NCBI RefSeq assembly: GCF_000497125.1
Contig: NC_090597.1
Coordinates: 879,797-943,796, forward strand
Length of the DNA stretch: 64,000 nt
Direction of reading: 5' to 3'
Origin: Spironucleus salmonicida
Taxonomy: Eukaryota
Shown here in pieces: positions 7,222 to 23,600 of the stretch. The notes under the pieces are model-generated. The model saw only the letters and a program-made list of their open reading frames with translations, was not told where the DNA came from and did no database searches. Numbering within the stretch: position 1 is the stretch's first letter; the number at the start of each line of letters is the position of its first letter. A program made the position numbers and the translations under genes.

Positions 7222-7378
7222 AGTAGTAAGTAATACATTCTAAAAGTATGGTTCAGTCGGCTTCGGTTAAAAAAAGGCAAGTCATGGTTATGATCGCAAC
7301 ACGGTCATAAAAAATTACTTTGACGGTTTTAAACTAGAGACTACGGGTGCATGCTGTTAGTACTAGTTACTTAATTCT
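7222..7378 (+). mobile_element. ~157-bp element with inverted-repeat ends (MITE-like, AGTAGT terminus), copy 1
   Basis: Starts AGTAGTAAGTAATAC, core GTCATGGTTATGATCGCAACACGGTCATAAAAA, ends TTAGTACTAGTTACTTAATTCT. Aligns by eye with 18935-19092 and with the reverse complement of 20475-20630. Confidence 0.65.
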
Positions 7379-8720
7379 AGAATAATAAATTATTGAAAAA
7401 TTAAATCTTAATAATAGAAACTAGCTTATTAAAGTGAATATAATAATATATGAAGCACAATTATTATATATTACTTAAATTATATATTATAATATATTTT
7501 AGTTATGTAATTTATTAATTAAATATGAAATTAAATGGTTTATGATAATGATTTAATTATTTATTAACCAAAACAAACTATTTTTACAATTATCTAAATT
7601 AAAAATAATAGTAATTTCCATTTCCTTAAAAGGATATTTATTGTACTTATTTAGTGTAGAACAAATATTGTTGAATGAGGATTATAATAACTAATATTTG
7701 TAACGTATTGATATAAATTTTAAATTGTAAGTTATCAAGATAACTAGTGTTATGATTTACAAATATTAATATATTAACATTAAAACAGATGAATGTTTGA
7801 AATAAATGTTACTGTTTGATAATATTTAATGATAATACATATTTGGTATAAGTAATCTCACATAATATATATTCGCTTTAAATATTATAACAAATCTACC
7901 ATTCATCGAATAAGCTTTGACTGCAAAGCATATGCGTAAATTCTAACGATATATTTGTAATACTTATATATTTTATTAAAATTTATCATCATATAAAATG
8001 ATTGATTACAAATAAAAATTATTTCAAATATAATGAAATCTACGCTTCTAATGAAATTCATATTTGATTATAAACATCTTAAATTATAGTTAAAACCTAA
8101 ACAGCATACATACCTCGATTCAATAGAGAACTAAATTGTAAATTTAAAAAACTTTACATTATTAAATTTAAATATTTAAATATATCTGTATACACATAAT
8201 AATCGTATGATATCTTGATTCTATTATCGGTTTAGGTATAAATATTGCTTTTAATAATATATATTGTTATTATATTTAATATATATATTTATATAAAATA
8301 GTTTATTATTAAAAATCACCATAGATAAATAATACTATAATAAGCATAATAAATAAATAAAAATATAAAATAATAGTTATATTTATATATTTAATACATA
8401 AACTTATTACATAATATTAATAACAAATCATGATTAATAATAAATAAACAAATAAAATATATGACAAACATTATTGTAATAAAATATATGTATTACTTAT
8501 AATTTTACGTATTATTTAACTTTTAAAAAATATAAAAATTAACAGTATATGAAGTTATCATCGATATAAATGAAGAACTATTTTTTAGTGTTTTTATGAT
8601 TTTATATTATTAATTTTAGAGTAGTTAATCCAAGTTAACCGCTTATCACAAAAAGCGAAACTATTTAATCCTAATTATTTATGAATTAAAGCACTTATCG
8701 TAAAATTTCATTAACTAAAA

Positions 8721-20474: not shown

Positions 20475-20630
20475 AGTAGTATGTAACCAGTACTAACCAT
20501 GTAAAATGAAAAAATTCACTTTTCAAAATATGCAATCCTTTTCATGATCGCGTTGCTACCTTAAAAGGCTTGAATTTTTAAAAAATATATTTCTCAAGAT
20601 ATATACTTTTAGTACGTATTACATACTACT
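20475..20630 (-). mobile_element. ~157-bp element with inverted-repeat ends, copy 3 (inverted relative to copies 1 and 2)
   Basis: Arms 20473-20496 and 20609-20632 pair at 21 of 24 positions, with ATAGTAGTATGTAA perfect. The minus-strand core is GGTAGCAACGCGATCATGAAAAGGATTGCATATTTTGAAA. Confidence 0.75.
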
Positions 20631-23600
20631 ATTAGTCTATATTTCTACTCTCCTTTCTGTTTTATATATGCTATGCCACTATCATACTTATAATCAAACT
20701 TACAATCATTTGCTAATTGCTTTAGTACAGCTTCATCCTTATAACCATCTTGATCTGAGTGCAATGTCTTGTTGAACATCTATGAATTAATGTAATTATT
20801 TCCATCATATTTCTTATCATTAAAACTTGTTATTTAGTACGTATGTATCTCGCATATCTCCCTGAACGTATAACCTTCGTATAAAGCATTTATCAATTCA
20901 ATCTCATGCCAAAACCCATAAAGATATCTTTATTCGAGGTTGTGCTTACATTTATCATGATTGTTAACATTTAAACATTGCTATTATGTGCATGTTCTAC
21001 ATAAGGGAAATAGCAACTTGTTACAAATATGACATCCTAACACTGGGAACTTTAAATCCCTTGGTGGTAACATCTAACATTTGATTTATATTACTCTTTC
21101 CTTCTTATCGTATCCAGCTAAGTAGTATTGAAGTCTTTACTCTGCTGTAATCTTCCTTGGTATGCTCCTAACGTATTCAATTAAGTTATCAATATAGGCT
21201 TAATCAAATTTAAACTTATGCTTTGCAATATCTTTTGAATCAATACTTTTGGTATACGTTGAGCATCCTGCTTGTGTTCCAACAATCAAATCTCTTAAAG
21301 GTAAGTTTCCAAATACCATGACTGAAGGGTAAACCGATGTGAAGCCAATTCCGTACAGCTTTTTGTTTGGTCTATCGATTTCTCTACAATGAGTGTAGCA
21401 TTCAGTTCTTCCTCCTTGTAATATCGATCTATTGCTTATGTTGTATTACGGAGGTATCTCTATCTTGATATCGCTGTGCTATTTAAATTTAATAAACTCA
21501 ACGTCTGCTACATGAAAGATGTCTTCAAATACTCCTTCATTCATTCTATCTTTTAAGCGTAATCCCTTCGTTTTATGCTGCCTCTTCCTTTCTTGCATTA
21601 CTTTATAATACTTATATGTTTGCTTTAATTCCTTTAACCCATGATAGAACACTCCATCCAATTCTAATCCATACTTCTTAGTTGCGCCATCCGTGTCACC
21701 ATGGAATACTATATCAATATTGTATCTTGTATCTAAGAATCGTTGATTGTAGAGTACATTTGTTATCTTGGTAAACTTGGTTCCTAAAAGTGTATTTATC
21801 ATTCCACTATCATTCAAAGTTAGATGCGCTAAGCGATACTCGCATTTCGATTTGTTATGTTTTAGATCGTGATAACCTATTTATATCTTTGTATTGCAGT
21901 GGTGTGTGAATAGGTTCATTGGCATTGCTGATGCTGTTAAATAGTTGAGCCTGTTGACACCCTATTCCTTTAGTGATACTTCTACCCATTTCACAAGAGC
22001 TTTGCTTAAAATGAGCTATCTTGAATACAATAATTAATATACTAATCAATGAAGTCTAAGTGATCATAGTAGCTAGCATATTAATTGAACTCATCCAAGC
22101 TTAGCTTATCAAAGTGTTTCTGTTATAGAATGCCTTCTTTTACTAATTCACTTATTGATTTAAGACTCCCTCCGTTTTAAATATACAAATCAAATATATC
22201 TTTTGTTAAGAACGTGTATGACTATAGTTGTTTTCCAACTTCAAGTCCAAGGGCCAATTCCTTATTTAGTTTTGCTAATGGTGAAGTTATGAGTCTAAAT
22301 GAATCCTTAAACGACATTCCATTTATTTTCAAATTCAATAGCTAGTTGTTTGAAATCAATGTTTCGAATTCGAATTGCTCTTTCACTTTCATTATAGCTG
22401 CTAATAATAAGTATTTGTCATATGCTGCTGCATTGTGTGCATAGAAGTCTTTTATCTTATATTTCTTAGTTATTGGTTCCATGTGCCTTATAAATTTGAT
22501 TAGCAAATCGTCTGTTGAAGTGATGTAGTTGCCTGGTTCTTTTAATCTAAGTGCGTTATCATAAAAGTGATCCATCTCTTCATATGTGTTTGTTTCCTTA
22601 TCGTGTATGTTTATAATCCATATTACTAAAAATGGGATGTGTTTCATTGAATACTTTGAATAGTTATCATCATTTTCATTGAGATTCTCGAATAGGCTTT
22701 CTATATCCCAAGTTAGAAATGATTTCTATTCATCATAAAGGTTTCCTTATTTGAAGTACTATCCTTCATATTCAATTTACGTTTTACATTTGCGTGATGA
22801 GTTGTGTGTCGTATTACAATGACTGCATGGTGAAAACTTCTCGCATTTCTTTTAATGTCGTTCTAAGCATTTGCTATCAGGTGTGTTATGGAGCTATGTT
22901 TTACAGTTTTAACATTAATAACTTTTGTTGTCTTTGTATCTTACATGACTGTAGTTGCAAAACGTACAATAATACTTAGTAGCCACTTCTTCTGCTTGTG
23001 TACATTCATAACATTGGTTCTTCTTATGGAATAGGTTTTGGTGTTGATAGCAATAAATATATTCCTTGTGCATTGGGTTCATTGTATTTATTCATTGTTT
23101 AAAATCCATTATGACATTGTAATGTCCATTGCATAAAACTAATAAAAGATCCATTTCTGAATTTGGATACAAGTCATTTACTTTATTAACTTCTGCTACT
23201 CTTATCTTTATATTCAAATACCTTTCTGCTCTTATTAGTATCTCTGTATCTGCTAACTCCTCTGCATCTTTGTTGATTTCATTTATAAGCATATGCGTAA
23301 AGTATTATAAGTATTAGTTTATAGCTTTAGCTTTGTCTAAGGGCTTATCTAAATACGTTTGTAAAGCCTTACCTGCATCAAATGCTATTGTGGTCATTGC
23401 ATATGGTTTCGCTCCTAACTAAAAGATATGTTTCTTATCAACTGTTTTTGATTTCTTGATGAATTCTGCAATGATGGCCGCGTATAGACAGTTGTGGTCA
23501 TTATTTTTGACAAAGAATATAGACCCTTTAAATTTTTACTCTAGTGTTGCGTTTTCTAAATATCCATGACCTACATTTCTACATATCAATCCTATTTAGT

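Follow-up and report, generated by a model that had tools for sequence, protein, structure and literature searches.

A window of 64,000 nucleotides from Spironucleus salmonicida contains a segment of ~157 bp that recurs beside start codons of AT-rich reading frames, and the locus raises the question of what this segment is. A sequence-only reading had offered two answers, a non-autonomous miniature moved by the Polinton machinery or a reiterated module serving as promoter or cassette boundary. The repeat looks like a palindrome from the end of a decayed Polinton-like DNA virus, with both of its ends resembling the virus terminus. The three copies first noticed, 156-158 bp long, are real: alignment reproduced their lengths and coordinates, and pairwise local scores were 113, 89.5 and 98.5 versus means of 31-33 for dinucleotide shuffles (maximum 60.5, 500 shuffles). 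With 25 bp trimmed off both ends, the scores were 78.5, 44.5 and 73.5 versus shuffle maxima of 38-44, and a profile search of shuffled DNA returned zero unit matches. Details of the description had to be corrected. The AGTAGT...ACTACT ends hold in general, but have decayed to AATTCT at the 3' end of copy 1; the inverted arms are present at the tips, but the symmetry spans the entire unit; and the arms of copy 3, given as 21/24, match at 19 of the first 24 positions in the arm display. The window also has further members (2613-2770, 61452-61610, 1930-1995 and a half-terminus at 24890). The features are:

1930-1995, plus strand: double-ended mini-unit of 66 bp, exactly at the edge of the inverted duplication 1-1930 / 33171-35098
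2613-2770, minus strand: older, diverged solo unit (profile E 1.4e-17), duplicated along with a CRMP segment, flanks shared
6156-7221, minus strand: N-terminal fragment of a family-B pPolB gene together with TIR interior, broken off at 6156 beside a CRMP1 gene
7222-7378, plus strand: unit copy 1, type I, 157 bp, outer TIR part in a fragment of a pPolB element
18935-19092, plus strand: unit copy 2, 158 bp, inner (5') end joined to host DNA
19093-20474, minus strand: cassette with a broken orphan gene (240-aa frame 19746-20468), three genomic copies
20475-20630, minus strand: unit copy 3, type II, a linker of 156 bp
20631-24474, minus strand: family-A pPolB gene in pieces, cut at copy 3, without C-terminal polymerase motifs
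24830-24890, minus strand: half-terminus, a single outward arm from AGTAGT without inner mirror arm
61452-61610, minus strand: segmental duplicate of the 2613-2770 unit (profile E 1.8e-20)

A second copy of the mini-unit begins near 27872, and copy 2 has 99 % identical copies at C2:1089601 and C2:1100475. The half-terminus, matched by the profile at model positions 98-157, is the left end of a family-A element; its junction was identified by comparison with C2:1101078, and an independent placement at C9:248590 shows 82 % identity over 128 bp. A known non-coding RNA was ruled out by the Rfam search of window positions 1-26000, which gave zero matches at E 0.5.

The unit is a full-length imperfect palindrome of two ~72-bp arms, only 53-83 % complementary, and an asymmetric core. 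Because of this palindrome, the (AGT)2 terminus is present twice, at the true end and mirrored ~155 bp inward. About 60 copies were seen in 23 distinct placements; these are lower bounds obtained from single queries and one pattern genome-wide, with a profile scan of ~0.76 Mb of 14.5 Mb. The genome-wide terminal pattern had 58 matches versus 10 for the reversed control. No element DNA lies alongside 11 of the 23 placements, and double-ended pieces without element DNA measure 34, 66, 96, 141 and 151-159 bp. Solo copies sit at joints where DNA among surface-protein genes has been duplicated or rearranged; of 38 catalogued units, 25 have at least 20 CxxC motifs within 2.5 kb, a raw count that shows no enrichment by itself.

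The proposed link to Polintons was borne out: the broken gene next door encodes a pPolB, and the unit makes up the terminal 154-159 bp of the TIRs in a family of linear, Polinton-like elements that encode pPolB and are broken. The element C2:1091226-1099007 is bounded by 239-bp TIRs, 100 % identical, which start with the unit; between them lie pPolB and ATPase-like motifs. These TIRs lie inside a 1,864-bp inverted repeat, so duplication or conversion may account for their identity. Polinton/Maverick features, as given in the part of PMC4196379 used here, served for comparison. A protein-primed family B polymerase was found (E 7e-66 to PF03175-bearing Hexamita proteins), as were TIRs of 100-1,000 bp, here 239 bp, and a short terminal tandem repeat of 1-3 bp, here (AGT)2 at the ends; the longest TIR-bounded copy, 7,782 bp and degraded, falls short of 15-20 kb. 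Every one of the nine pPolB loci in the genome is broken, and the elements are now fossils. Their pPolB genes use the TAA/TAG=Gln code, in a diplomonad host. The broken pPolB of the window shares 39 % identity with intact 1,512-1,518-aa PF03175 proteins of Hexamita inflata; the family-A gene aligns to residues 243-1213 of the 1518 of Hexamita pPolB P0008, and its paralogues extend to about residue 1500. On the family-B side, 6156-6898 is 90 % identical to C2:1091532-1092271, which runs into the pPolB of that element, and the 5' flank of copy 1 is TIR interior common to C2:485214, C5:971183 and C6:1045797. Walker A/B-like and RH motifs, which may belong to an A32-type ATPase, were picked by eye in four broken copies; the best library support for this region is AAA_30 (E 0.018), and searches found no homologues. 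Interior ORFs had no Pfam or PHROG match to a capsid or cysteine protease in these general libraries, which hold no dedicated capsid profile. Pfam rve (PF00665) and Phage_integrase gave 0 candidates genome-wide in a search that is insensitive to decayed TAA/TAG-coded genes. For the DNA context of the relatives, viral contigs and metagenomes yielded no confirmed locus.

The orphan 240-aa frame has short metagenomic relatives at 30-54 % identity, no Pfam or PHROG match and an AlphaFold pLDDT of 32. The by-eye guess that it encodes an rve integrase was discarded: Pfam gave no match, the relatives are found in another frame and without the motif, the fold model was unusable and an Atlas search had no usable match. 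A composite transposon built of copy 2, the ORF and copy 3 was likewise rejected, as the two copies are just 64 % identical and no target-site duplication (TSD) is present; copy 3 and the unit at the matching C2:1.09 Mb place share only 76-82 %. All three start codons described next to units exist (7214, 18933 and 20468), but with gaps to the unit of 7, 1 and 6 bp. Relatives were found for the frame that the ATG at 20468 opens; the other two open frames of 61 and 57 codons, and the one at 18933 belongs to flank DNA also present in a unit-free paralogue. Two runs guessed to be RNA gave contigs over pPolB parts and none over units or the orphan ORF, a result uninformative either way.

Both unit ends act as DNA joints, to the nucleotide. 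Homology to unit-free paralogues ends within 2 nt of AGTAGT at 15 of 20 testable ends, including six exact inner ends of full-length units; two further ends lie within 10 nt and three at 16-21 nt. Part of these 20 calls rests on BLAST coordinates only. Copy 1 has its outer terminus at the 3' end, where host DNA follows, and homology of this flank to the unit-free C2:1071325 ends within 2 nt of the unit. The inner end of copy 2 adjoins host DNA downstream of a CRMP1 gene, where the paralogue C2:1105620 matches 41/41 nt up to the first A and diverges beyond. Copy 3 is joined by its outer end to the 5' flank of the orphan gene and by its inner end into the pPolB gene. Both junctions are precise in comparison with C2:1091139 and C2:632215, and one short-read contig covers 20382-20709 with zero differences (runs X1 and X3, one sample). 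For four units (copy 3, C2:1011617, C2:477938 and C8:127814) unit-free paralogues of the two flanks are at different loci. Several junction paralogues are 98-100 % identical and therefore recent. An (AGT)n stutter with AGTAGT microhomology occurs at C9:144891.

The arms of a unit pair with each other better than shuffled arms (0.653 versus 0.547, z 6.5; |z| at most 2.4 at offsets of 1-3 columns), a covariation that is weak within subfamilies (type I, 0.576 versus 0.565). At C9:282277, one of four duplicates, a 5-nt tract of the right arm was altered to match the left arm; such copying in the chromosome means that the covariation requires no selection. Mismatches of the G.T type favour the strand with the terminal 3' end (142 versus 71, in 18/21 units), and this strand has the more stable fold in 20/21 units. 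In the 11 most diverged units the bias drops to 71 versus 47 (p 0.03; by column p 0.22); a bias of this sign would also be expected from strand-specific C-to-T decay. Copy 2 as DNA folds no better than shuffles (z +0.9). The hairpin is not universal, since the left end of family-A elements has no mirror arm.

We consider it somewhat probable that the unit is a fold-back terminus whose inner arm serves as a second end, and that such ends were joined to chromosome breaks without target duplication. In a free replicating element, the strand carrying the terminus at its 3' end would fold into a hairpin of ~70 bp, which could provide either end with a duplex origin of its own for protein-primed initiation. 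Slide-back priming is compatible with the AGT repeat. If initiation or cutting took place at the inner arm, molecules ending there would result, short double-ended pieces included. The free ends would join chromosomal breaks without target duplication, often with unrelated DNA on either side, and units would be left as linkers at the breakpoints of deletions, inversions and duplications, as with copy 3. TIR membership, the single polarity, the exact junctions, the absent 6-bp TSD and the folding point to this fold-back model. The copies behind it are integrated and broken; no free or replicating form was observed.

The miniature moved by Polinton machinery retains the solo double-ended copies and the pPolB link, and lost the 6-bp TSD and the clean empty site; no rve or tyrosine integrase was recognised in the insensitive genome search. 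In the integrase-driven form of this idea, which we regard as unlikely, the two arms of a unit, outer and inner, are paired by an element integrase that mobilises the unit like a MITE; arms paired between sister chromatids or distant copies, as in hybrid element insertion or alternative transposition, would create flanking deletions and direct or inverted duplications. A direct duplication terminating at C5:887296 and inverted duplications terminating at C9:144891 and C2:1100632 match the patterns of P and Ac/Ds (PMC3744419, in the part used here). Nucleotide-exact junctions at both ends are also expected from an integrase. The predicted 6-bp TSD, however, was found around single units at 0/23 placements, and the fragment C9:248590-252455, the only element with two independent outer flanks, has none. 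One 5-bp direct repeat, flanking C5:900512, speaks for an integrase; a single such case among 23 has a chance of ~9 % (0.0039 each) and comes without an empty site. Units of 34-159 bp are short, non-coding and inverted at their ends like MITEs, but lack a uniform TSD and clean empty sites. Unit-free paralogues exist for 11 solo or linker units, none of which has a clear empty site; at C9:384050 paralogues of 72-79 % identity may present a collinear one, and no unit-free paralogue was found for C5:900512, C7:78060 and C2:42725. Also against it stand gaps of ~20 nt at two ends whose paralogues are 96-99 % identical, and the 0 integrase candidates with the insensitivity noted above.

Host processes acting on inert relics of viral ends are a quite unlikely explanation, in which nucleases cut hairpins at their base during chromosomal replication, and template switching rejoins the ends and keeps the arms similar. 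The arm copying at C9:282277 resembles quasi-palindrome template switching (PMC3820800, in the part used here), and recombination of Plasmodium var genes has been linked to hairpins (PMC3936766, likewise in part). Some junction paralogues are 99-100 % identical, yet every pPolB copy is broken, and this speaks for the host reading. The low arm complementarity is, however, weak for cruciform cutting, and the palindrome with its single polarity in all 8 TIR-linked placements, as well as the mismatch strand bias, is left unexplained. Palindrome-driven breaks usually occur near the centre; here they are at the tips.

Self-priming by a parvovirus-like terminal hairpin with hairpin transfer, instead of protein priming, is very improbable. 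In its favour, size and imperfect-palindrome anatomy are like those of parvoviral ends. A hairpin-priming model has also been proposed for Halocafeteria elements (10.64898/2026.07.28.741278, in the part used here). The identical polarity of 8/8 independent TIR-linked placements, without flip-flop, as well as the encoded pPolB and the (AGT)2 ends, argue against it. The reiterated promoter or cassette boundary has hardly any probability left: the ATG 6 bp off copy 3 opens a frame with relatives, but outward ATGs occur at chance level (7/46 ends versus 7.3 expected, a background of 15.9 %), so that the idea fails, the C2:1.09 Mb copies place the unit 86 bp farther from the ORF start than at 20468, and 11/23 placements have no element gene nearby.

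The fold-back terminus bears on Polinton-like replication and chromosome entry, which so far are understood mainly through a model. Elements that encode pPolB, end in a ~155-nt palindrome and lack target duplications deviate from the Polinton model, and such ends also differ from the sole report of terminal palindromes that we found (10.64898/2026.07.28.741278, in the part used here). Intact relatives in Hexamita make the terminal-palindrome model testable. Among the surface-protein genes of this fish parasite, the units lie exactly at breakpoints of rearrangements, some of them recent, and may have caused these breakpoints. More tentatively, and with a rather low probability, a diplomonad lineage of pPolB viruses with self-sufficient hairpin ends, the inner arm serving as a second functional terminus, may have shed double-ended mini-replicons of 34-159 bp and joined chromosomes without an integrase footprint, and these pieces may repeatedly have made the breakpoints of segmental duplications in the CRMP1 arrays; viral ends would then have helped to build the antigen repertoire of the parasite (VSP-like CRMP1 surface-protein arrays). 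The literature search found no earlier account of the unit and no description of these elements in a diplomonad, while the supplements of two bioRxiv preprints may bear on precedent. The term 'viral' is absent from the text of two genome papers, one of which describes most repeats in parasitic diplomonads as uncharacterised.

Among known systems, parvovirus hairpins and Streptomyces palindromic telomeres share a palindromic end of 120-170 nt folding on the 3' strand, combined in Streptomyces with a terminal protein. Streptomyces ends consist of several short palindromes, in contrast to the one long palindrome here, and the flip-flop of parvoviruses was not seen; the likeness is one of anatomy. 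MITEs and the alternative transposition of P and Ac/Ds resemble our units as short, non-coding DNA with inverted ends, and P and Ac/Ds also in duplications and deletions terminating exactly at the element end, but they have TSDs at their junctions and a known cognate transposase, neither of which was found here (PMC3744419, in part). Halocafeteria seosinensis virophages and PLV subtype 4 have palindromes at the TIR extremities that are proposed to fold into hairpins; these adjoin TSDs, measure 52 nt in the drawn example and preferentially accompany non-pPolB replication genes, and the available part of the account has no mention of solo copies or inner-arm junctions (10.64898/2026.07.28.741278). 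Ours are ~155 nt, imperfect and on pPolB elements, without TSDs. Polintons/Mavericks share a pPolB with N-terminal extension followed by ATPase-like motifs, TIRs in the 100-1,000-bp range and a short terminal tandem repeat (PMC4196379, in part). They differ in that here the outer ~155 bp of the TIR form a palindrome with a second terminus, the 6-bp TSD is absent, no rve integrase, capsid or protease gene was recognised and the longest TIR-bounded copy is broken at 7.8 kb. The endogenous viruses of the Metamonada group, described from parabasalids and Streblomastix, were found in a screen that included S. salmonicida (Table S1), and the available part of that account names no diplomonad (PMC10120064). 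No capsid gene was identified in our elements. Like our elements, these viruses are of the pPolB type and reside in metamonads, and those of Streblomastix use TAA/TAG=Gln as do the genes described here (PMC10120064, in part).

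The unit, an element of about 157 bp running from AGTAGT to ACTACT, is real: its three copies lie where the sequence-only reading had placed them, and they align far above shuffled sequences, even with the ends removed. The right end of copy 1 has decayed, and the arms of copy 3 match at 19 of 24 positions, not at the 21 claimed. Almost the entire length of each copy also matches the unit profile on the opposite strand, thus the unit is a single imperfect palindrome, with two ~72 bp arms around a core that is short and asymmetric. Two more old copies, one 66-bp version and one half-terminus are also present in the window (C2:879797-943796).

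Features discussed in the text (coordinates without a contig are window positions; C1 to C9, genome contigs)
7222-7378, + strand: copy 1 of the unit
18935-19092, + strand: copy 2
20475-20630, - strand: copy 3
39943-45760 and 55410-61183: large segmental duplication, CRMP regions
2371-5098 and 61207-63926: large segmental duplication, CRMP regions
1-1930 and 33171-35098: large segmental duplication, CRMP regions (the window's set includes direct and inverted ones)
24891-25293 and C2:1100637-1101320: older, more diverged pPolB N-terminal remnant
C2:7814, C1:1909649, C9:602.9k and 12 more sites near contig ends: subtelomeric 148-151-bp unit version
C6:9.5-29.4 kb (L069-L071) and C8:1061.6k (L100): ~340-bp subtelomeric tandem repeat

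The terminal pattern had 58 matches in the genome (14.5 Mb, 42 contigs) versus 10 for a reversed control. About 60 units were counted: 39 catalogued, 13 subtelomeric duplicates, two on C8, four tandem partials and two 34-bp versions. Removal of copies sharing both flanks left 23 placements; one of these, C6:953605, possibly goes back to an early duplication of the 2613 group. The conserved interior of a terminal inverted repeat (TIR) continues 5' of the unit in eight placements, always with identical polarity, therefore the 3' end of the unit is the outer terminus. The clearest element, C2:1091226-1099007, has 7,782 bp and 239-bp TIRs beginning with the unit. DNA of elements with a protein-primed family B polymerase (pPolB) adjoins 11 of the 23 placements, and another 11 have no element DNA in the flanks examined; copy 2 adjoins a 240-aa orphan frame. 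The unit thus forms the terminus of a linear replicon with pPolB, nowadays a fossil. Elements of family A, the pPolB subfamily at 20631-24474, have a left end that consists of the outer arm only, in two independent placements.

A fragmented pPolB occupies the frames at 20631-24474, covering aa 243-1213 and ending at copy 3; its closest relatives are intact PF03175 proteins of 1,512-1,518 aa from Hexamita inflata (39 %, E 7e-66). Next to copy 1, the fragment at 6156-6898 corresponds to the N-terminus of a pPolB from a second subfamily. All nine pPolB loci of the genome are broken. ATPase-like motifs following pPolB were recognized by eye in four copies, with a library support of only E 0.018. 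The 240-aa frame that separates copies 2 and 3 occurs three times in the genome and has short relatives in metagenomes; no function could be assigned to it. Low-depth contigs of two runs, which may be RNA, cover the broken pPolB or its paralogues (21291-23861). Two joins lead into the older pPolB remnant, one from a family-A end and the other from a copy-2 unit, a case of nested relics.

Further arrangements were observed. The subtelomeric block carries 15 copies of the 148-151-bp version, 91-98 % identical including flanks, and the ~340-bp repeat contains a ~76-bp stretch starting with AGTAGT and ending with TACTAC. In a ~3-kb tandem array at C2:465.8-478.1 kb (L144-L149, L104), each repeat closes with a unit cut short at 138 bp, except that the final repeat has the full unit. 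An 11-kb structure at C2:1089601-1100632 (L004-L006) has 1,864-bp inverted arms (14 mismatches) with copy-2 unit, orphan frame and type II unit, flanking a pPolB element. An 8-kb inverted duplication (98.6 %) at C6:1043-1068 kb (L034-L037) includes two pPolB copies; the frame between them (L035:6717-7469) has a basic, amphipathic-looking terminal stretch and no family match.

Both unit ends are DNA joints. Of 20 ends with unit-free paralogues, 15 lose homology no more than 2 nt from AGTAGT, two within 10 nt and three at a distance of 16-21 nt, part of this set being placed by BLAST coordinates only; six of the exact junctions are inner ends, the mirrored AGTAGT termini, of full-length units. 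At four units, copy 3 among them, DNA of two different loci is brought together: 12177-20474 matches C2:1082850-1091139 (97 %), 20630-31897 matches C2:632215-643494 (93 %). One short-read contig, from a sample that may be the assembly source, spans copy 3 and both junctions with no differences. Units also terminate direct and inverted duplications (C5:887296, C9:144891, C2:1100632, window 1930). The mirrored arm of this replicon end is established as a structure. On balance we favor that it serves to let the 3' strand fold back and to present a second terminus; free molecules ending at either arm, short double-ended pieces included, would have become attached at chromosome breaks, with no duplication of the target.

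Transposition of a miniature driven by an integrase, combined with alternative transposition, is unlikely. The expected 6-bp target-site duplication (TSD) occurred in none of the 23 placements, a 5-bp one in a single placement (~9 % by chance), and Pfam rve and Phage_integrase had no match in the genome, in a search of low sensitivity to decayed genes of this code. Unit-free paralogues of 11 solo or linker units revealed no clear case of a simple empty site, C9:384050 being ambiguous. Host processing of inert hairpins is quite unlikely, self-priming in the manner of parvoviruses is very improbable; from the junctions, these two and the integrase explanation cannot be told apart cleanly. In 20 of 21 units the right arm is closer to its own left arm than are the right arms of other units (0.68 vs 0.585), and arm pairing is 0.653 vs 0.547 for shuffled arms, an excess lost on sliding columns. 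This covariation is no proof of selection, because a 5-nt tract was copied from arm to arm within the chromosome, in one of four chromosomal duplicates, resembling the quasi-palindrome template switching treated in PMC3820800. Mismatches of the G.T type (142 vs 71) favor the strand with the terminal 3' end, and for 20 of 21 units this strand has the more stable fold. Among the 11 most diverged units the mismatch bias is weaker. Strand-specific deamination could be the source of this bias, and under either cause we infer a single-stranded history of this strand. Promoter cassettes, also proposed from the sequence, can practically be dismissed, outward ATGs being at chance level (7 of 46 ends, 15.9 %), the ATG at 18933 belonging to host flank and that at 20468 having its distance to the unit increased by 86 bp where the frame occurs in its other two copies.

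As to the surroundings, TAA and TAG have to be read as Gln for the long cysteine-rich frames of the window to open; these match the Giardia VSP family. The genome paper (PMC9509377) reports VSP-like CRMP1 arrays, genes of cysteine-rich surface proteins, on chromosomes 2 and 9; the portion of its text available to us contains neither 'transpos' nor 'viral' nor 'inverted'. A 215-aa gene at 14998-15645, within the segment that also occurs at C2:1083-1091 kb, weakly matches the Nup98 autopeptidase (E 9e-4).

A literature search retrieved no paper that describes these elements in diplomonads, nor one on inner-arm joints. The unit works as the end of a Polinton does, as outlined in PMC4196379, in pPolB, TIR and terminal repeat, but the 6-bp TSD and the length of the canonical Polinton are lacking, and neither integrase nor capsid gene was found; therefore these elements should not be labelled canonical Polintons. 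According to 10.64898/2026.07.28.741278, Halocafeteria virophages and one PLV subtype carry terminal palindromes, which lie beside TSDs and preferentially accompany non-pPolB genes. Metamonad endogenous viruses whose genes read TAA/TAG as Gln are described, in PMC10120064, for Streblomastix.
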